In this document: positions 42,022 to 58,638 of the stretch, one piece after another
Layout of the letters: each line of letters begins with the position of its first letter
Position numbering within the stretch: position 1 is the first letter of the stretch
From: Escherichia coli
GTDB taxonomy: Bacteria > Pseudomonadota > Gammaproteobacteria > Enterobacterales > Enterobacteriaceae
Assembly: GCF_003018255.1 (NCBI RefSeq)
Contig: NZ_CP027440.1
Reading direction: 5' to 3' (one strand)
Length of the DNA stretch: 64,000 nt
The notes under the pieces: generated by a model
Database searches by the model: none
Told to the model about the DNA's origin: nothing
What the model saw: only the letters and a program-made list of their open reading frames with translations
Translations under genes and position numbers: made by a program

Positions 42022-42141
42022 ATGCCTGGCAGTTCCCTACTCTCGCATGGGGAGACCCCACACTACCATCGGCGCTACGGCGTTTCACTTCTGAGTTCGG
42101 CATGGGGTCAGGTGGGACCACCGCGCTAAGGCCGCCAGGCA
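42022..42141 (-). rRNA. rrfG: 5S ribosomal RNA
   Basis: 120-nt match to E. coli 5S rRNA (one base differs from the sequence I recall). Confidence 0.9.
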
Positions 42142-42238
42142 AATTCTGTTTTATCAACACGTCTCGTTATGACATGTCGATTTAATCTGTATCAGGCTGA
42201 AAATCTTCTCTCATCCGCCAAAACATCTTCGGCGTTGT

Positions 42239-45143
<2,905 letters not shown>

Positions 45144-45336
45144 TCACAACCCGAAGATGTTTCTTTCGATTCATCATCGTGTTGCGAAAATTTGAGAGAC
45201 TCACGAACAACTTTCGTTGTTCAGTGTTTCAATTTTCAGCTTGATCCAGATTTTTAAAGAGCAAATATCTCAAACATCACCCGAAGATGAGTTTTGAGAT
45301 ATTAAGGCAGGTGACTTTCACTCACAAACCAGCAAG

Positions 45337-45412
45337 TGGCGTCCCCTAGGGGATTCGAACCCCTGTTACCGCCGTGAAAGGGCGGTGTCCTGGGCCTCTA
45401 GACGAAGGGGAC
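45337..45412 (-). tRNA. gltW: tRNA-Glu (UUC) in the 16S-23S spacer
   Basis: 76-nt exact match to GTCCCCTTCGTCTAGAGGCCCAGGACACCGCCCTTTCACGGCGGTAACAGGGGTTCGAATCCCCTAGGGGACGCCA. Confidence 0.9.
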
Positions 45413-45497
45413 GTATCAGTCTGCTTCGCAAGACGCCTTGCTTTTCACTTTCTATCAGACAATCTGTGTGAGCACTGCAAAGTACGCTTCTTTAAGG

Positions 45498-47039
<1,542 letters not shown>

Positions 47040-47482: not shown

Positions 47483-50056
47483 TTACTGGACGGCGACAAT
47501 CCGGTCTTCATTAACTTCCAGGCGAATAACTTTACCCGGAACCAATTCACCAGACAGTATTTGCTGTGCCAGCGGGTTTTCGATCTGCTGCTGGATAGCA
47601 CGTTTCAGCGGACGTGCACCATAGACCGGATCGTAACCGTTCTCGCTCAGCAGTTTCAGCGCCTCGTCAGAAATGTGGATTTCATAACCACGTTCTTCCA
47701 GACGTTTGTACAGACGTTTCAACTGAATCTGCGCAATCGACGCAATGTGCTGTTCACCCAGCGGATGGAAGACCACCACTTCATCGATACGGTTAATGAA
47801 TTCCGGACGGAAGTTATGGCTTACCACACCGAGCACCAGCTCTTTCATGTGCGCATAATCCAGTTCACCGAAGCGTTCCTGAATCAAATCGGAACCGAGG
47901 TTAGAGGTCATAATGACAACCGTATTACGGAAGTCGACCGTTCTCCCCTGCCCGTCAGTCAGACGCCCATCATCCAGTACCTGCAACAGAATGTTGAAGA
48001 CATCCGGATGCGCTTTTTCCACTTCATCCAGCAGGATGACGGAATACGGACGACGACGCACAGCTTCGGTCAGGTAGCCACCTTCTTCATAACCGACATA
48101 TCCCGGAGGCGCACCAACCAGACGAGACACCGAGTGTTTCTCCATAAACTCGGACATATCGATACGGACCATCGCCTCGTCGCTATCAAACATAAAGTTC
48201 GCTAGCGCCTTACAAAGCTCAGTTTTCCCCACACCGGTTGGGCCGAGGAACAGGAATGAACCAATCGGGCGATTTGGATCCGCCAGCCCCGCACGGCTAC
48301 GACGAATAGCGTTAGATACCGCATCAACCGCTTCGTTCTGACCAATAACGCGATGGTGCAGTTCTTGCTCCATACGCAGCAGTTTTTCGCGCTCGCTTTC
48401 CATCATGCGAGAAACCGGAATCCCCGTCCAACGCGCCAGCACTTCAGCAATTTCGGCATCGGTCACTTTATTACGCAACAGACGCATAGTTTTGCCTTCG
48501 AGCTGCGTTGCGGCTTCCAGTTGCTTTTCCAGTTCCGGGATTTTGCCGTATTGCAGTTCAGACATCCGCGCCAGGTCCCCCACACGGCGAGCCTGTTCAA
48601 TAGCGATTTTCGCCTGTTCCAGTTCCGCTTTAATGGTCTGTGTACCAGAAAGCGATGCTTTCTCTGCTTTCCACTCTTCTTCTAACTCGGAGTACTGACG
48701 TTCTTTGTCGCTCAGTTCTTCGTTGAGCATATCCAGGCGTTTTTTACTGGCTTCATCAGACTCTTTCATTAACGCCTGTTGTTCCAGTTTGAGCTGAATG
48801 ATACGGCGATCGAGTCGGTCGAGTTCTTCTGGTTTTGAGTCAATCTGCATACGAATGCTGGATGCTGCCTCATCGATCAGGTCGATGGCTTTATCTGGCA
48901 GCTGACGGTCAGCAATGTAGCGATGAGACAACGTCGCCGCTGCAACAATTGCCGGGTCAGTAATTTGCACATGGTGGTGCAGTTCGTAACGTTCTTTTAA
49001 GCCACGCAGAATAGCAATGGTGTCTTCAACAGAAGGCTCGGCAACAAACACTTTCTGGAAACGACGCTCCAGCGCAGCATCTTTTTCGATGTACTGGCGA
49101 TATTCGTCAAGCGTCGTGGCACCTACGCAGTGCAATTCACCACGCGCCAGCGCCGGTTTCAGCATGTTTCCGGCGTCCATTGCGCCATCGGCTTTACCCG
49201 CACCGACCATGGTATGTAATTCGTCGATAAACAGGATGACGTTGCCTTCCTGTTTGGCAAGATCGTTAAGCACGCCTTTTAAACGTTCTTCAAACTCACC
49301 GCGATATTTCGCCCCAGCCACCAGCGCGCCCATATCCAGCGCCAGTACGCGGCGGCCTTTCAACCCTTCCGGCACTTCGCCGTTGATAATACGCTGCGCC
49401 AGACCTTCAACGATGGCAGTTTTACCGACACCGGGTTCACCAATCAGTACCGGGTTATTTTTAGTACGACGTTGCAGCACCTGAATGGTACGGCGAATTT
49501 CTTCATCACGACCAATCACCGGATCGAGTTTGCCCTGTTCGGCTCGTTCGGTAAGGTCGATGGTATATTTTTTCAAAGCCTGACGTTGGTCTTCAGCACC
49601 TTGATCGTTCACGCTTTCACCTCCACGCATTTGTTCAATCGCTTGAGTAATGTTGGCGGTGGTCGCCCCTGCTGCTTTCAGGATGTCGGCCAGCGTGCCG
49701 CGAGACTCAAGTGCCGCCAGAACGAACAGTTCTGACGAGATAAAGTTATCACCACGTTTTTGCGCCAGCTTGTCGCAAAGATTAAGAACGCGCACCAGAT
49801 CCTGTGATGGCTGGACATCACCACCAGTACCTTCAACCTGTGGTAAACGATTTAATGCCTGATTGATATCTGTGCGCAACTGGCCAGCATTAATGCCAGC
49901 GGATGTTAATAAAGGACTAACCGAACCCCCTTCCTGATTCAGCAGGGCGCTCATTAAATGAAGTGGTTCGATGAATTGGTTGTCGTGCCCGAGTGCAAGT
50001 GATTGGGCATCGGCAAGAGCAAGCTGGAATTTATTAGTAAGACGATCCAGACGCAT
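47483..50056 (-). CDS. clpB: Disaggregase chaperone ClpB
   Basis: 857-aa product starting [18 protein letters not shown]; two AAA+ modules and coiled-coil M domain. Confidence 0.95.
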
Positions 50057-50094
50057 AACTCCTCCCATAACGGATCAAAGTTGCTACTGGAGAT

Positions 50095-50123
50095 TAAATG
50101 AGGTCATCCCTCAATTATTCAAG
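50095..50123 (-). promoter_or_regulatory. Sigma32 heat-shock promoter of clpB (CTTGAA-N14-CCTCATTTA)
   Basis: Match to the sigma32 consensus CTTGAAA/CCCCATNT with correct spacing. Confidence 0.55.
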
Positions 50124-50185
50124 GTTATTGACCAGATTAATGTGAAAAGAAAATCACGCGTACCGGATCGTCTTGATTCTTTAGG

Positions 50186-50917
50186 TTATATCAGCCAAAT
50201 GAAACTTGCCATACGACCGGTGGTCTTGTCGCGACGATAAGAGAAGAAAGTCTCATTTTCCGTATATGTACAACGGTCACCGCCGAAAATTTGTTCGACA
50301 CCGACGTTCGCCAGACGCTGCCGGGCAAGGAGATAAATATCCGCCAGATACTTATCACCATGCTGAATGAAAGCTGTACTCGCTTTGGCGTCTACTGCCA
50401 TAAACGCCTCGCGAACCTCCGCCCCCACTTCAAACGCGCGTGGACCAATTGCCGGCCCTAACCAGGCGAGAATATTTTCCGGATTATCAGCAAAACAGGA
50501 AACCGTCTCTTCCAGCACGCCTGAGCACAGTCCACGCCAGCCAGCATGAGCGGCGGCGACTTCCGTTCCCGCTCGATTGCAAAACAGCACGGGGAGGCAG
50601 TCGGCAGTCATCACTGCGCAAACCGTGCCCGGCGTGTTGCTATAAGAGGCATCTGCTCGTTTTGAGGCATAAGGTTCGCCAGTAAGCTTAAGCACATCTT
50701 TGCCGTGTACCTGCTCAAGCCAGACCGGTTTTGAAGGCAAATTGCCCGCAGCAAAAAGTCGCTTACGATTCTCTTCAACGTGATCCGGGTTATCGCCACA
50801 ATGAGCACCGAGGTTGAGCGAATCATACGGGGGCAAGCTCACGCCGCCGATACGAGTGGAGCTACAGGCCGCAACACCTTTTGGCAGCGGCCACTGCGGG
50901 ACAATCAGCTTACTCAT
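50186..50917 (-). CDS. pgeF: Purine nucleoside phosphorylase / polyphenol oxidase-like protein (DUF152)
   Basis: 243-aa ORF; synteny with K-12 yfiH between rluD and clpB. Confidence 0.85.
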   Translation of the reverse strand: MSKLIVPQWPLPKGVAACSSTRIGGVSLPPYDSLNLGAHCGDNPDHVEENRKRLFAAGNLPSKPVWLEQVHGKDVLKLTGEPYASKRADASYSNTPGTVCAVMTADCLPVLFCNRAGTEVAAAHAGWRGLCSGVLEETVSCFADNPENILAWLGPAIGPRAFEVGAEVREAFMAVDAKASTAFIQHGDKYLADIYLLARQRLANVGVEQIFGGDRCTYTENETFFSYRRDKTTGRMASFIWLI

Positions 50918-51894
50918 AACCAGTCCACTTCATCCTTATGCTCTTCGAAATCGGCGCGCATCACCTCAATCAGCTCCACCATATCTTCTGGAATAGGCGC
51001 ATGCCATTCCATTTCGATACCGGAGATCGGGTGATAAAGACGCAGCATGGTTGCATGAAGCGCCTGGCGGTCAAACTTACGCAGCGTGGAGATAAACGCT
51101 TCCGAAGCACCTTTTGGCGGACGCGGACGGCCACCATAAACCGGATCGCCCACCAGCGGATGAGTGATATGGGCCATATGCACGCGGATCTGGTGCGTAC
51201 GTCCGGTTTCCAGACGCAACCGCAGACGCGTGTGCACACGGAAGTGTTCCATGATGCGATAGTGAGTGACCGCCGGTTTACCCATCGGATGCACCGCCAT
51301 GTGAGTACGTTTGGTCGGGTGGCGGCTGATTGGTTCATCTACTGTACCGCCAGCGGTCATATGACCAATTGCCACCGCTTCATACTCACGAGTAATTTCA
51401 CGCCGTTGCAAAGATTCGACTAAACGCGTCTGAGCCGGAACGGTTTTTGCCACAACCATCAGGCCGGTGGTGTCTTTATCCAGACGATGGACGATGCCCG
51501 CACGCGGTACATCGGCAATGGGCGGATAATAATGAAGCAACGCATTCAGTACCGTACCATCCGGGTTACCCGCGCCAGGATGTACCACCAGGTCGCGTGG
51601 TTTATTAATGACGATGATATCTTCATCTTCATAGACGATATCCAGCGGGATATCCTGCGGTTCAAAACGCGCTTCTTCTTCAATCTCAGCGTTGATGGCC
51701 ACCTGCTCGCCACCCAATACTTTTTCTTTCGGCTTATCACAAACTTTGCCGTTAACCAGCACGCGCTGGTCGAGGATCCATTCTTTTATTCGCGAACGTG
51801 AATAATCCGGGAACATTTCGGCCAAAGCCTGATCTAAGCGTTGACCGAGTTGGTTTTCGGACACCGTTGCAGTGAGCTGTACTCGTTGTGCCAT
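50914..51894 (-). CDS. rluD: 23S rRNA pseudouridine(1911/1915/1917) synthase
   Basis: 326-aa ORF with S4 domain and RluA-family catalytic motif HRLDKDTTGL. Confidence 0.95.
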   Translation of the reverse strand: MAQRVQLTATVSENQLGQRLDQALAEMFPDYSRSRIKEWILDQRVLVNGKVCDKPKEKVLGGEQVAINAEIEEEARFEPQDIPLDIVYEDEDIIVINKPRDLVVHPGAGNPDGTVLNALLHYYPPIADVPRAGIVHRLDKDTTGLMVVAKTVPAQTRLVESLQRREITREYEAVAIGHMTAGGTVDEPISRHPTKRTHMAVHPMGKPAVTHYRIMEHFRVHTRLRLRLETGRTHQIRVHMAHITHPLVGDPVYGGRPRPPKGASEAFISTLRKFDRQALHATMLRLYHPISGIEMEWHAPIPEDMVELIEVMRADFEEHKDEVDWL

Positions 51895-52028
51895 ATATAC
51901 TGCTTCTTCGTTTATCGTTGGGGTTTTACGGCTTTGCCGTTTAATATAGTGTGCTATTGTAGCTGGTCTTAACCGGGAGCAGGAACAGAGAATCTCCCGT
52001 ATTACATTTTGAGGAAAGTCAAAACGTC

Positions 52029-52766
52029 ATGACGCGCATGAAATATCTGGTGGCAGCCGCCACACTAAGCCTGTTTTTGGCGGGTTGCTCGGGGTCAAAG
52101 GAAGAAGTACCTGATAATCCGCCAAATGAAATTTACGCGACTGCACAACAAAAGCTGCAGGACGGTAACTGGAGACAGGCAATAACGCAACTGGAAGCGT
52201 TAGATAATCGCTATCCGTTTGGTCCGTATTCGCAGCAGGTGCAGCTGGATCTCATCTACGCCTACTATAAAAACGCCGATTTGCCGTTAGCACAGGCTGC
52301 CATCGATCGTTTTATTCGCCTTAACCCGACCCATCCGAATATCGATTATGTCATGTACATGCGTGGCCTGACCAATATGGCGCTGGATGACAGTGCGCTG
52401 CAAGGGTTCTTTGGCGTTGACCGTAGCGATCGCGATCCTCAACATGCACGAGCTGCGTTTAGTGACTTTTCCAAACTGGTGCGCGGCTATCCGAACAGTC
52501 AGTACACCACCGATGCCACCAAACGTCTGGTATTCCTGAAAGATCGTCTGGCGAAATATGAATACTCCGTTGCCGAGTACTATACAGAACGTGGTGCATG
52601 GGTTGCCGTCGTTAACCGCGTAGAAGGCATGTTGCGCGACTACCCGGATACCCAGGCTACGCGTGATGCGCTGCCGCTGATGGAAAATGCATACCGTCAG
52701 ATGCAGTTGAATGCGCAAGCTGAAAAAGTAGCGAAAATCATCGCCGCAAACAGCAGCAATACATAA
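52029..52766 (+). CDS. bamD: Outer membrane protein assembly factor BamD
   Basis: 245-aa TPR lipoprotein with lipobox LAGCSG. Confidence 0.95.
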
Positions 52767-52789
52767 CAGAAACCTGAAACACAAAACGG

Positions 52790-52803
52790 CAGCCCTTGAG
52801 CTG
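52790..52803 (+). repeat. Left copy of target-site direct repeat CAGCCCTTGAGCTG flanking IS4
   Basis: Identical 14-mer at 54231-54244 directly abutting the other IS terminus. Confidence 0.7.
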
Positions 52804-54230
52804 TAATGCCGATCAGTTAAGGATCAGTTGACCGATCCAGTGGCTGTGTAAGAATCCGGAAACGCTCACTTGTTTCCGGATTTTTTTATGCACATTGGAC
52901 AGGCTCTTGATCTGGTATCCCGTTACGATTCTCTGCGTAACCCACTGACTTCTCTGGGGGATTACCTCGACCCCGAACTCATCTCTCGTTGCCTTGCCGA
53001 ATCAGGTACTGTAACGCTACGCAAGCGCCGTCTTCCCCTCGAAATGATGGTCTGGTGTATTGTTGGCATGGCGCTTGAGCGTAAAGAACCTCTTCACCAG
53101 ATTGTGAATCGCCTGGACATCATGCTGCCGGGCAATCGCCCCTTCGTTGCCCCCCAGTGCCGTTATTCAGGCCCGCCAGCGCCTGGGAAGTGAGGCTGTC
53201 CGCCGCGTGTTCACGAAAACAGCGCAGCTCTGGCATAACGCCACGCCGCATCCGCACTGGTGCGGCCTGACCCTGCTGGCCATCGATGGTGTGTTCTGGC
53301 GCACACCGGATACACCAGAGAACGATGCAGCCTTCCCCCGCCAGACACATGCCGGGAACCCGGCGCTCTACCCGCAGGTCAAAATGGTCTGCCAGATGGA
53401 ACTGACCAGCCATCTGCTGACGGCTGCAGCCTTCGGCACGATGAAGAACAGCGAAAATGAGCTTGCTGAGCAACTTATAGAACAAACCGGCGATAACACT
53501 CTGACGTTAATGGATAAAGGTTATTACTCACTGGGACTGTTAAATGCCTGGAGCCTGGCGGGAGAACACCGCCACTGGATGATACCTCTCAGAAAGGGAG
53601 CGCAATATGAAGAGATCAGAAAACTGGGTAAAGGCGATCATCTGGTGAAGCTGAAAACCAGCCCGCAGGCACGAAAAAAGTGGCCGGGACTGGGAAATGA
53701 AGTGACAGCCCGCCTGCTGACCGTGACGCGCAAAGGAAAAGTCTGCCATCTGCTGACGTCGATGACGGACGCCATGCGCTTCCCCGGAGGAGAAATGGCG
53801 GATCTGTACAGTCATCGCTGGGAAATCGAACTGGGATACAGGGAGATAAAACAGACGATGCAACTGAGCAGGCTGACGCTGAGAAGTAAAAAGCCGGAGC
53901 TTGTGGAGCAAGAGCTGTGGGGTGTCTTACTGGCTTATAATCTGGTGAGATATCAGATGATTAAAATGGCGGAACATCTGAAAGGTTACTGGCCGAATCA
54001 ACTGAGTTTCTCAGAATCATGCGGAATGGTGATGAGAATGCTGATGACATTGCAGGGCGCTTCACCGGGACGTATACCGGAGCTGATGCGCGATCTTGCA
54101 AGTATGGGACAACTTGTGAAATTACCGACAAGAAGGGAAAGGGCCTTCCCGAGAGTGGTAAAGGAGAGGCCCTGGAAATACCCCACAGCCCCGAAAAAGA
54201 GCCAGTCAGTTGCTTAACTGATCGGCATTA
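52804..54230 (+). mobile_element. IS4-family insertion sequence (IS4-like, 1427 bp) with 18-bp perfect terminal inverted repeats
   Basis: IRL TAATGCCGATCAGTTAAG at 52804-52821 equals the reverse complement of IRR at 54213-54230; single internal DDE transposase gene of about 442 codons; flanking 14-bp direct repeat; size fits IS4 (about 1426 bp). Confidence 0.85.
52888..54217 (+). pseudogene. insG: IS4 transposase, reading frame split by +1 frameshift in a C6 run (53150-53155)
   Basis: ORF 52888..53193 (MHIGQALDLVSRYDSL...) and ORF 53147..54217 overlap in different frames; joined they give about 442 aa with the IS4-family YREIK motif ([13 protein letters not shown]). Confidence 0.75.
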
Positions 54231-54244
54231 CAGCCCTTGAGCTG
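54231..54244 (+). repeat. Right copy of target-site direct repeat CAGCCCTTGAGCTG flanking IS4
   Basis: Identical to 52790-52803. Confidence 0.7.
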
Positions 54245-54423
54245 CCGTTTTTTTATTCTGTTAGTTGTGAAACTGAAGCGATTTAGTCACTATCGATCTC
54301 ATCAAATATGGCTCGCTTTGAGATATTCCTCAAGTAAAAAAACACCTCTTCCTGCGATTTCTCACAAAAAAGATTCGTTGACAAAAAGTGACAAAATTAT
54401 GAGATTTCCATCACACATTTTGA

Positions 54424-54819
<396 letters not shown>

Positions 54820-54842
54820 TCCTTTATATTGAGTGTATCGCC

Positions 54843-54866
54843 AACGCGCCTTCGGGCGCGTTTTTT
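54843..54866 (+). terminator. Rho-independent terminator of raiA
   Basis: CGCGCC-TTCG-GGCGCG hairpin followed by TTTTTT. Confidence 0.6.
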
Positions 54867-54922
54867 GTTGACAGCGTGAAAACAGTACGGGTACTGTACT
54901 AAAGTCACTTAAGGAAACAAAC

Positions 54923-54970
54923 ATGAAACACACACCGTTTTTCTTCGCATTCTTTTTTACCTTCCCCTGA
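54923..54970 (+). CDS. pheL: pheA leader peptide (15 aa, 7 Phe codons)
   Basis: Translates to [15 protein letters not shown]; immediately followed by the attenuator. Confidence 0.8.
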   Translation: [15 protein letters not shown]

Positions 54971-55016
54971 ATGGGAGGCGTTTCGTCGTGTGAAACAGAA
55001 TGCGAAGACGAACAAT

Positions 55017-55046
55017 AAGGCCTCCCAAATCGGGGGGCCTTTTTTA
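55017..55046 (+). terminator. pheA attenuator terminator
   Basis: AAGGCCTCCC-AAAT-CGGGGGGCCTT hairpin followed by a T-run, 20 bp upstream of the pheA ATG. Confidence 0.7.
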
Positions 55047-55068
55047 TTGATAACAAAAAGGCAACACT

Positions 55069-56229
55069 ATGACATCGGAAAACCCGTTACTGGCGCTGCG
55101 AGAGAAAATCAGCGCGCTGGATGAAAAATTATTAGCATTACTGGCAGAGCGACGCGAACTGGCCGTCGAGGTGGGAAAAGCCAAACTGCTCTCGCATCGC
55201 CCGGTACGTGATATTGATCGTGAACGCGATTTGCTGGAAAGATTAATTACGCTCGGTAAAGCGCACCATCTGGACGCCCATTACATTACTCGCCTGTTCC
55301 AGCTCATCATTGAAGATTCCGTATTAACTCAGCAGGCTTTGCTCCAGCAACATCTCAATAAAATTAATCCGCACTCAGCACGCATCGCTTTTCTCGGCCC
55401 CAAAGGTTCTTATTCCCATCTTGCGGCGCGCCAGTATGCTGCCCGTCACTTTGAGCAATTCATTGAAAGTGGCTGCGCCAAATTTGCCGATATTTTTAAT
55501 CAGGTGGAAACCGGCCAGGCCGACTATGCCGTCGTACCGATTGAAAATACCAGCTCCGGTGCCATAAATGACGTTTACGATCTGCTGCAACATACCAGTT
55601 TGTCGATTGTTGGCGAGATGACGTTAACTATCGACCATTGTTTGTTGGTCTCCGGCACTACTGATTTATCCACCATCAATACGGTCTACAGCCATCCGCA
55701 GCCATTCCAGCAATGCAGCAAATTCCTTAATCGTTATCCGCAATGGAAGATTGAATATACCGAAAGTACGTCTGCGGCAATGGAAAAGGTTGCACAGGCA
55801 AAATCACCGCATGTTGCTGCGTTGGGAAGCGAAGCTGGCGGCACTTTGTACGGTTTGCAGGTACTGGAGCGTATTGAAGCGAATCAGCGACAAAACTTCA
55901 CCCGATTTGTGGTGTTGGCACGTAAAGCCATTAACGTGTCTGACCAGGTTCCAGCGAAAACGACGTTGTTAATGGCGACCGGGCAACAAGCTGGTGCGCT
56001 GGTTGAAGCGTTGCTGGTACTGCGCAACCACAATCTGATTATGACCCGTCTGGAGTCACGCCCGATTCACGGTAATCCATGGGAAGAGATGTTTTATCTG
56101 GATATTCAGGCCAATCTTGAATCAGCGGAAATGCAAAAAGCATTGAAAGAGTTAGGGGACATCACCCGTTCGATGAAGGTATTGGGCTGTTACCCAAGTG
56201 AGAACGTAGTGCCTGTTGATCCAACCTGA
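55069..56229 (+). CDS. pheA: Bifunctional chorismate mutase / prephenate dehydratase
   Basis: 386-aa ORF with CM, PDT and ACT domains. Confidence 0.95.
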
Positions 56230-56271
56230 TGAAAAGGTGCCGGATGATGTGAATCACCCGGCACTGGATTA

Positions 56272-57393
56272 TTAGTGACGGTTGTCATTCGCCTGACGCA
56301 ATAACACGCGGCTTTCACTCTGAAAACGCTGTGCGTAATCGCCGAACCAGTGCTCCACCTTGCGGAAACTGTCAATAAACGCCTGCTTATCGCCCTGCTC
56401 CAGCAACTCAATCGCCTCGCCGAAACGCTTATAGTAACGTTTGATTAACGCCAGATTACGCTCTGACGACATAATAATGTCGGCATACAGTTGCGGATCC
56501 TGGGCAAACAGTCGCCCAACCATCGCCAGCTCAAGGCGGTAAATCGGCGAAGAAAGCGCCAGAAGTTGCTCAAGCTGAACATTTTCTTCTGCCAGGTGCA
56601 GCCCATAAGCAAAAGTAGCAAAGTGGCGCAGTGCCTGAATAAACGCCATATTCTGATCGTGCTCGACAGCGCTAATACGATGCAGCCGAGCGCCCCAGAC
56701 CTGAATTTGCTCCAGAAACCATTGGTATGCTTCCGGCTTACGTCCATCACACCAGACCACAACTTGTTTTGCCAGGCTACCGCTGTCCGGGCCGAACATC
56801 GGGTGTAACCCCAGCACCGGACCATCATGCGCCGCCAGCATGGCCTGTAATGGTCCATTTTTCACCGATGCCAGATCGACCAGAATACAATCTTTCGGTA
56901 AAGGCGGTAATTTGCCAATAACTTGTTCAGTAACGTGGATGGGCACACTAACAATCACCATTCCGGCATCGGCAACTATCTCAGCCGCTCGATCCCAGTC
57001 ATGTTGCTCCAGAATCCGCACCTGATAACCCGATAGTGTCAGCATCTTCTCGAACAGGCGTCCCATCTGACCGCCACCGCCGACGATAACCACCGGGCGC
57101 AGTGACGGACAAAGCGTTTTAAATCCTTTGTCGTTTTCACTGGAGTAAGATTCACGCATCACCCGACGCAAAACATCCTCAATCAGATCTGGCGGTACAC
57201 CCAGAGCTTCCGCCTCTGCACGACGCGAGGCCAACATAGATGCCTCGCGCTCCGGAACATAAATAGGCAGTCCAAAGCGGCTTTTCACCTCGCCCACTTC
57301 AGCAACCAGTTCCAGACGCTTCGCTAATAAATTCAGCAGCGCTTTATCGACTTCATCAATTTGATCGCGTAATGCGGTCAATTCAGCAACCAT
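56272..57393 (-). CDS. tyrA: Bifunctional chorismate mutase / prephenate dehydrogenase
   Basis: 373-aa ORF; convergent with pheA. Confidence 0.95.
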
Positions 57394-57403
57394 AATAAAC
57401 CTC

Positions 57404-58474
57404 TTAAGCCACGCGAGCCGTCAGCTGCCCGTTCAGATCCTGATGAATTTCACGCAGCAAGGCATCGGTCATTTCCCAGCTAATGCAGGCATCGGTTACG
57501 GATACACCGTATTTCATTTCACTGCGCGGTTGCTCGGAAGACTGATTGCCCTCGTGGATATTACTTTCGATCATCAGACCAATAATTGAGCGATTGCCAT
57601 CTTTGATTTGAGCAACCACGGATTCTGCCACCGCAGGCTGACGGCGATAATCTTTATTGGAATTACCGTGGCTGCAATCTACCATCAGAGACGGGCGCAG
57701 TCCCGCCTGTTCCATCTCTTTTTCACATTGCGCAACATCCGCAGGGCTATAGTTCGGCGCTTTACCACCGCGCAGGATCACATGCCCGTCCGGATTCCCC
57801 TGAGTTTGTAGCAACGCCACCTGCCCTGCCTGGTTAATGCCAACAAAACGGTGCGGCTGGGCGGCGGCACGCATAGCGTTAATAGCCGTTGCAAGGCTGC
57901 CGTCGGTGCCGTTTTTAAAACCAACCGGCATGGAAAGCCCGGAGGCCATTTCACGGTGTGTTTGCGATTCCGTTGTACGAGCACCAATTGCTGACCAGCT
58001 AAACAGATCGCCCAGGTATTGCGGGCTATTCGGATCTAACGCTTCCGTCGCCAGTGGCAGTCCCATATTCACCAGCTCAAGCAGCAATTTACGCGCGATC
58101 TGCAGCCCGGCTTCTACATCAAAAGAGCCATCCATATGGGGATCGTTAATCAACCCTTTCCAACCGACAGTGGTACGGGGTTTTTCAAAATAGACGCGCA
58201 TTACCAGATAGAGGCTATCGCTGACCTCTGCGGCAAGGGCTTTAAATCGACGAGCATATTCCAGAGCAGTTTCCGGATCATGAATGGAACAAGGACCACA
58301 TACTACCAACAGACGAGGATCGCGCCCGGCGATAATATCTGAAATGGTTTTACGCGAGTCAGCAATCTGGGCTTCCTGTTGCAGGCTTAATGGAAAAGCG
58401 GCCTTCAGTTGTTCCGGAGTCATTAAAACTTGTTCGTCGGTAATATGTACGTTATTCAGCGCGTCTTTTTGCAT
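57404..58474 (-). CDS. aroF: Tyr-sensitive DAHP synthase
   Basis: 356-aa product starting [15 protein letters not shown] (ORF track start trimmed). Confidence 0.95.
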
Positions 58475-58568
58475 GATGGCGATCCTGTTTATGCTCGTTT
58501 GCGATAGTTGATCCTCAGCGAGGATGACGTAACGATAACACATAAAGTAAAGTTTTCAATCCATATTT

Positions 58569-58638
58569 CGTACATTTTTCTTTACACAAGCAATTTATTC
58601 GCGCTTTTAACCCTTGTTTATGTATAAATAAATTTACA
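58569..58638. promoter_or_regulatory. TyrR boxes in the aroF promoter region
   Basis: Minus-strand TGTAAA-N6-TGTACG (58569-58586) and TGTAAA-N6-TATACA (58621-58638) match the TGTAAA-N6-TTTACA consensus. Confidence 0.5.

Follow-up and report, generated by a model that had tools for sequence, protein, structure and literature searches.

This locus raises the question whether an insertion sequence whose transposase gene is divided over two reading frames is a broken copy of a normal element, an artefact of sequence assembly, or an element that is read by way of a frameshift. It lies in a stretch of 64,000 nucleotides of an Escherichia coli chromosome (hereafter the window), which is colinear with the glyA-purL-rnc-rpoE-rrnG-clpB-bamD-raiA-pheA region. 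A first-pass annotation had described the transposase of an IS4 element as two overlapping ORFs that switch frame inside a run of six C residues (C6), had predicted a frame of about 442 codons after deletion of one C, and had considered the copy to be probably inactive and fixed in place, unless the run was an assembly error or a site of slippage. The coordinates and frames of both ORFs were reproduced (Table 1). Deletion of one C indeed yields a continuous ORF of 442 aa (InsG), which differs from InsG of E. coli K-12 at two residues. As set out below, the reading that we prefer, with a probability of about 0.9, is that a canonical IS4 resides in the terminator of bamD and that a +1C slippage became fixed in one lineage, which would make this copy a transposase-dead, non-autonomous pseudogene with intact ends.

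The ends of the element are well defined. The terminal repeat pattern TAATGCCGATCAGTTAAG has two matches in the window, where 0.05 would be expected by chance, and both are directly bordered by copies of a 14-bp direct repeat, CAGCCCTTGAGCTG. When the flanks are joined with a single copy of this repeat, the terminator hairpin of bamD is rebuilt. The collection that we searched comprised 5,426 complete RefSeq E. coli genomes, and the reconstructed empty site has matches in 5,008 of them, one at 100% identity. Since the single-copy empty site is found in other genomes, the IS4 is a true insertion with a 14-bp duplication. Copies that are 100% identical to the IS4 of the window are present in many RefSeq genomes.

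Table 1. Positions in the window of the IS4 element, its reading frames, its target site and the neighbouring genes.
Feature	Positions	Strand	Description
bamD	52029..52766	+	Upstream neighbour; IS4 inserted into its terminator hairpin
Target-site duplication, left copy (CAGCCCTTGAGCTG)	52790..52803	.	14 bp; from direct-repeat search
Complete IS4	52804..54230	+	1427 bp, i.e. the 1426-bp K-12 reference plus one C; ends from inverted-repeat search and alignment to K-12 IS4
Left terminal inverted repeat (TAATGCCGATCAGTTAAG)	52804..52821	+	18 bp
ORF A	52888..53193	+	101 aa: 89 native N-terminal InsG residues and 12 out-of-frame residues; stop at 53191-53193
ORF B	53147..54217	+	356 codons; +1 frame relative to ORF A; rest of InsG
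C6 homopolymer	53150..53155	+	Position of the +1C frameshift; the reference has C5
Right terminal inverted repeat	54213..54230	-	Perfect 18/18 match to the left one
Target-site duplication, right copy (CAGCCCTTGAGCTG)	54231..54244	.	14 bp; from direct-repeat search
raiA	54478..54819	+	Downstream neighbour

Directly 5' of the transposase ATG the element contains a stem-loop followed by a U-run at 52850..52887 on the plus strand (AAUCCGGAAAC...GUUUCCGGAUU), with a predicted RNA fold of -23.5 kcal/mol (z = -4.86). This region is identical in K-12 IS4 and is part of a normal IS4. The structure looks like an intrinsic terminator or a translation-masking hairpin that would guard the start of the transposase gene, but a scan with a terminator consensus did not flag it despite its strong fold. 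A promoter scan gave a single promoter-like match, at 52828-52855, which is at chance level (one found against 1.8 expected). Elsewhere in the window, all indels and most substitutions relative to JNE112863, the closest relative in the collection, cluster in the rrn operon (42129-46776; 5S, 23S and 16S), where they occupy the 5S-23S spacer and short patches of the 23S and 16S genes. Heterogeneous copies of the rRNA operon, gene conversion among them, or the choice of one copy over another during assembly would be expected to produce this pattern.

Within the IS4 there is only one run of six C residues, at 53150-53155 (context GTTGCCCCCCAGTG), and it falls in the 47 nt over which ORF A and ORF B overlap. 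Pfam searches with the repaired protein returned Nterm_IS4 at residues 18-109 and DDE_Tnp_1 at residues 126-352 (E = 1.1e-31). As the frame shifts at residue 89, ORF A ends inside the N-terminal domain. ORF B holds the whole DDE_Tnp_1 domain as well as the Y-(2)-R-(3)-E-(6)-K (YREK) signature, found at residues 307-321 of the repaired protein. The only start codon at the 5' end of ORF B is a TTG, the first ATG does not occur before codon 80, and a convincing Shine-Dalgarno sequence was not found at this end. Against the NCBIfam model NF033592 (transpos_IS4_1; cut-off 115 bits) the repaired protein scored 304.5 bits and ORF B alone 252.2 bits, while ORF A alone stayed below the cut-off with 38.4 bits. 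In every C6 genome that we inspected, the identical copy appears in the PGAP annotation as an insG pseudogene with the note 'frameshifted'. The lesion is thus already on record in public annotation. A search of the insG literature returned nothing about the bamD-raiA locus or the C6 allele.

The reference copy of IS4 in K-12 has C5 at this position and a single ORF. We then determined how both alleles are distributed. IS4 is present in 2,685 of the 5,426 complete E. coli genomes. An exact match to the 62-mer that includes C6 was found in 76 of 2,545 IS4-bearing records; the other 2,469, K-12 included, matched imperfectly (C5-like), and C5 is thus the state of more than 97% of the IS4-bearing records. 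To count alleles at the insertion site, we used chimeric queries that joined a junction piece to a C-run piece, and set the E-value cut-off so strictly that a hit required the C-run piece to match exactly. With these queries, 74 genomes were found to have the bamD junction with C6, and 289 to have the identical junction with C5; the test left two of the 76 C6 records unassigned to the bamD junction. None of the searched complete genomes combined a C6 copy with a bamD site that was recognisably empty. The C6 genomes came from poultry, pigs, dogs, people, river water and seawater, and from several continents. A single IS4 place was found in 34 of 36 listed C6 genomes, but as a sign of inactivity this low copy number was downgraded to weak evidence, because the closest intact relatives also have only one or two IS4 places and phylogeny confounds the comparison.

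Together, the C5 state of the reference and of most records, the score of the repaired ORF and the PGAP label support the earlier proposal that the extra C probably inactivated the IS4 transposase and left the copy fixed in place. Whether this happened once or repeatedly can be judged from the flanks of the element. For this, about 12 kb around the site was taken from seven C6 genomes and from nine genomes with the junction only (C5), evenly spaced along the list obtained in the junction search, and the window was added. In a neighbour-joining tree of the 9.6-kb flanks, all eight C6 sequences (window included) formed one cluster, and each of the nine sampled C5 sequences was placed outside it, at a distance of 73-173 SNPs. 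The flanks within the main C6 cluster differ by 0-3 SNPs, and the C6 copies of the IS that were examined are identical except for one private SNP. Only 77 records match the adjoining 15 kb of the window at 99% identity or more, a number near that of the 76 C6 records.

Intact copies occur at exactly the same place. RM14723, 2015C-4136CT1 and Z1323HEC0355 carry IS4 at the identical bamD-raiA position, with the 14-bp duplication and perfect inverted repeats, and their copies differ from that of the window only by C5 and one SNP. The right flank of this group has 0 SNPs to the main C6 cluster and two to the window, and the left flank 73-81 SNPs in 5.3 kb. For these three genomes, and also for FCI1 (NZ_CM172811.1), the PGAP annotation gives insG as intact, with 442 aa. 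FCI1 is the single genome that has the exact repaired allele, again at the bamD-raiA site. No SNP separates its 9.7-kb flanks from those of the main C6 cluster, and in 12 kb there is no indel other than the C-run. FCI1 is either a revertant or a case in which the homopolymer was undercalled during assembly. Judged from these alignments, C6 is the derived state, confined to one lineage, with intact parent alleles at the same site. The simplest history would be that one C was gained once, in one ancestor, and was inherited vertically from then on.

The flanks also differ among the C6 genomes themselves. Two subclusters (the window and JNE112863 versus 104, D10, E956 and others) are separated by 32 SNPs in the 5.3-kb left flank and by 0-4 SNPs in the right flank. 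The locus is thus a mosaic of a left part, approximately 47500-52790 (clpB-yfiH-rluD-bamD), and a right part, 54245-58600, which suggests that recombination breakpoints lie at or near the IS4 insertion.

The terminator of bamD is a frequent target. IS4 was found in it in at least 363 of the 5,426 complete genomes (~7%), always in one orientation. The duplication at this site varies: besides the 14-bp form CAGCCCTTGAGCTG, there is a 12-bp form, GCCCTTGAGCTG (FDAARGOS_1249), and AR_0077 and two B2-type strains have a variant loop with a 13-bp duplication, CAGCCTTGAGCTG. In TCM3e1 and SX48 the left copy of the duplication is mutated to CAGTCC... These variants point to several independent insertions of IS4 at the bamD terminator. 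Most of the sampled C5 copies at the site have the K-12 version of the right inverted repeat. Some IS4 copies elsewhere, e.g. in NCTC86, match about 21 bp of the junction flank plus the IS end (query 30-102, 94.5% identity), which hints that IS4 may pick similar-looking targets elsewhere. Several copies in the bamD hairpin were inactivated independently, by lesions unlike the C6 of the window. The IS4 of EC1 lost one A from an A6 run (equivalent to 53674-53679 in the window), which leads to a stop after 271 aa; like the C6, this is a 1-bp homopolymer indel. The copies of EPEC O127:H6 and Z1323PEC0014 (B2-type) have in common an internal deletion of 336 bp (equivalent to 53409-53744), a 1-bp deletion and many substitutions. 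The pattern at the bamD site illustrates the known target specificity of IS4 and the decay of insertion sequences, and is not a new phenomenon.

Several other explanations for the C6 run have to be weighed, of which two concern the DNA itself. Homopolymers are the classic site of indel miscalls, and the real genome could have C5, with the sixth C as a sequencing or assembly error. FCI1, which is otherwise identical to the C6 cluster but has C5, means that at least one assembly could be wrong, in either direction. Yet such an artefact is hardly credible for the window, given that C6 stands at the junction in 74 complete genomes that are independent of one another and cover many laboratories, hosts and countries, that C5 was read at the same junction in 289 genomes and in thousands of other IS4 copies, and that C6 follows the local phylogeny. 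Moreover, the window differs from JNE112863 by nine SNPs and 0 indels over ~42 kb outside the rRNA operon, so there is no general homopolymer problem in the window. The assembly error that the first-pass annotation had left open is thereby effectively excluded. If the run is real, C5 and C6 might still flip and toggle the transposase, as in a phase-variable contingency locus. FCI1 looks as a revertant would, with 0 SNPs in its 9.7-kb flanks and an IS identical except for C5, and in EC1 the same-site copy was also inactivated at a homopolymer (A6 to A5). We nevertheless consider such a switch very improbable. C6 occurs in 76 of 2,545 records and is confined to one lineage, and tract length does not vary among close relatives, as all eight examined members of the C6 clade have C6; FCI1, the possible exception, would be one reversal among ~77 lineage genomes, by which the tract is stable, and it may simply be an undercalled homopolymer. 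Typical contingency loci have tracts longer than 5-6 bases, and the run discussed here is shorter than that.

The remaining explanations concern expression of the C6 allele. Leaky recoding would require that the ribosome slips by +1 on CCC-C, with tRNA-Pro moving from CCC to the next CCC, so that some full-length InsG is made and the element is hypoactive. The zero-frame codons are GCC CCC CAG, and a +1 slip would read CCC AGU GCC and restore the wild-type VAPSAV exactly. CC[C/U]-[C/U] motifs, the class to which the CCC-C in the C6 run belongs, are particularly prone to +1 shifts, with up to ~1% frameshifting in E. coli at codon 2 (PMC4519876). However, the motif lies here at codons 88-89, while codon 2, where the ~1% was measured, is the position where shifts occur most readily, and the average rate of non-programmed frameshifting is below 0.003% (PMC4519876). 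There is also no Shine-Dalgarno-like stimulator just upstream of the run. The next zero-frame codon is CAG, a common codon that is neither rare nor a stop. Furthermore, C6 was not encountered at any other locus, and the C6 genomes give no sign of transposition (a single IS4 place in 34 of 36, with the reservation made above). We therefore regard leaky recoding as unlikely; full-length InsG would be made in trace amounts at best, with a leak of no more than ~1%. Equally unlikely is the broader proposition that C6 is a reversible or leaky state, in which InsG is restored either by C6-to-C5 slippage, with FCI1 as the revertant, or by +1 ribosomal slippage at CCC-C. If it were true, the copy would be a dormant IS4 able to reawaken, and its activity might rise when m1G37 of tRNA-Pro or EF-P is compromised. 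Transcriptional slippage on C6 was set aside: known tracts for this process are far longer than six bases, and the population data show no activity. Finally, a fragment could have acquired a function, with the 101-aa ORF A peptide or an internally initiated ORF B product being retained because it regulates or inhibits the transposition of IS4. Transposase fragments that are N-terminal, or that lack the N-terminus, regulate other elements (such as IS1 InsA, IS911 OrfA and Tn5 Inh), which provides a precedent, and the C6 copies are nearly invariant across the clade. We give this very little credence, since ORF A stops inside Nterm_IS4 (18-109, with native sequence to residue 89), ORF B lacks an ATG until codon 80 and a convincing Shine-Dalgarno sequence, the clade is young (flanks with 0-3 SNPs in the main cluster), which accounts for the invariance, and in most C6 genomes there is no further IS4 copy that could be regulated.

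The reading that we prefer, inactivation of a canonical IS4 by a single added C, can be put as a series of events. IS4 inserted into the terminator hairpin of bamD, at a site that fits the IS4 target consensus AAA-N20-TTT, with duplication of the 14 bp now seen on both sides. Later, in the ancestor of the lineage, replication slippage presumably added one C to the C5 run at insG codons 88-89. Since then, translation leaves the native frame after residue 89 and stops 12 residues further on. The product consists of a truncated N-terminal domain, presumed to be DNA-binding, without the DDE catalytic domain, and the downstream 356 codons are left without a proper start. The copy appears to persist by vertical inheritance as a non-autonomous element; its ends are intact, and mobilisation in trans would be possible in principle. 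From these features we infer loss of transposase activity of the C6 copy, but the mutation may also have left a severe hypomorph in place of a null. For practical purposes, IS4 at bamD-raiA in the C6 lineage should be regarded as a landmark that is fixed and non-autonomous, not as an active element. In most C6 genomes this defective copy is the only IS4, so that they probably lack an IS4 transposase altogether. The C6 allele could also be used as a simple lineage marker.

It remains to compare the element with known systems. A DDE transposase with the Y-(2)-R-(3)-E-(6)-K signature defines the IS4 family, absence of a frameshift is a hallmark of its members, and the target duplication is quoted as 'about 10 bp' (PMC2266710). 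The repaired protein of the window has the signature and the DDE transposase domain and scores above the cut-off of the curated family model. The element has perfect terminal repeats of 18 bp and a duplication of 14 bp, where about one helical turn is expected; this is slightly more than the 12 bp of the K-12 copy and the 'about 10 bp' of the family. It is nearly identical to the reference, with six differences from K-12 IS4 in 1427 bp. It departs from the family in one respect only, its two ORFs instead of a single ORF without frameshift. Because this departure is a derived lesion, with single ORFs in K-12 and in the parents at the same site, it marks the window element as a defective IS4 and not as another kind of element. 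The element is thus IS4 itself, in a defective copy for which all features of the family are present except the single ORF.

The closest known system is K-12 IS4 (insG), the founding member of the family. Both elements have the same left inverted repeat, the same 1426-bp backbone and, after repair, a 442-aa transposase with Nterm_IS4, DDE_Tnp_1 and the YREK motif. K-12 IS4 has C5 and an uninterrupted 442-aa insG, whereas the window copy has C6. Beyond the extra C, the two differ by five substitutions, of which three are coding (G304A, R326L and one silent) and two are in the right inverted repeat. The right repeat of K-12 has two mismatches, CT instead of TC (54222-54223 in the window), while the repeats of the window match perfectly (18/18). 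The target duplication is 12 bp at K-12 IS4 and 14 bp at the window IS4. The copies also occupy different chromosomal sites, next to nanX in K-12 and between bamD and raiA in the window, although both sites fit AAA-N20-TTT.

Elements of the IS1 and IS3 families that use programmed frameshifting are superficially alike, in that their transposase, too, is encoded by two ORFs that overlap and change frame at a homopolymer. In these families the two-ORF layout is ancestral and conserved, and the shift is by -1 at motifs such as A6G. The window IS4 would need a +1 shift at a C run instead. It also has neither the A-site codon nor the upstream element of a stimulated shift site, as the A-site codon is CAG and the 18 nt upstream contain no Shine-Dalgarno-like motif. 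The suggestion that the run is a slippage site or a native two-ORF organisation is not supported: the intact references have C5, IS4-family elements are defined in part by the absence of a frameshift (PMC2266710), and C6 was not seen at other loci. Among the homologues the two-ORF layout is not conserved, since C6 is found in one lineage and the others are C5 with a single ORF. Unlike the arrangement in IS1 and IS3, the two overlapping ORFs of the window IS4 are a derived minority allele, present in 76 of 2,545 records.
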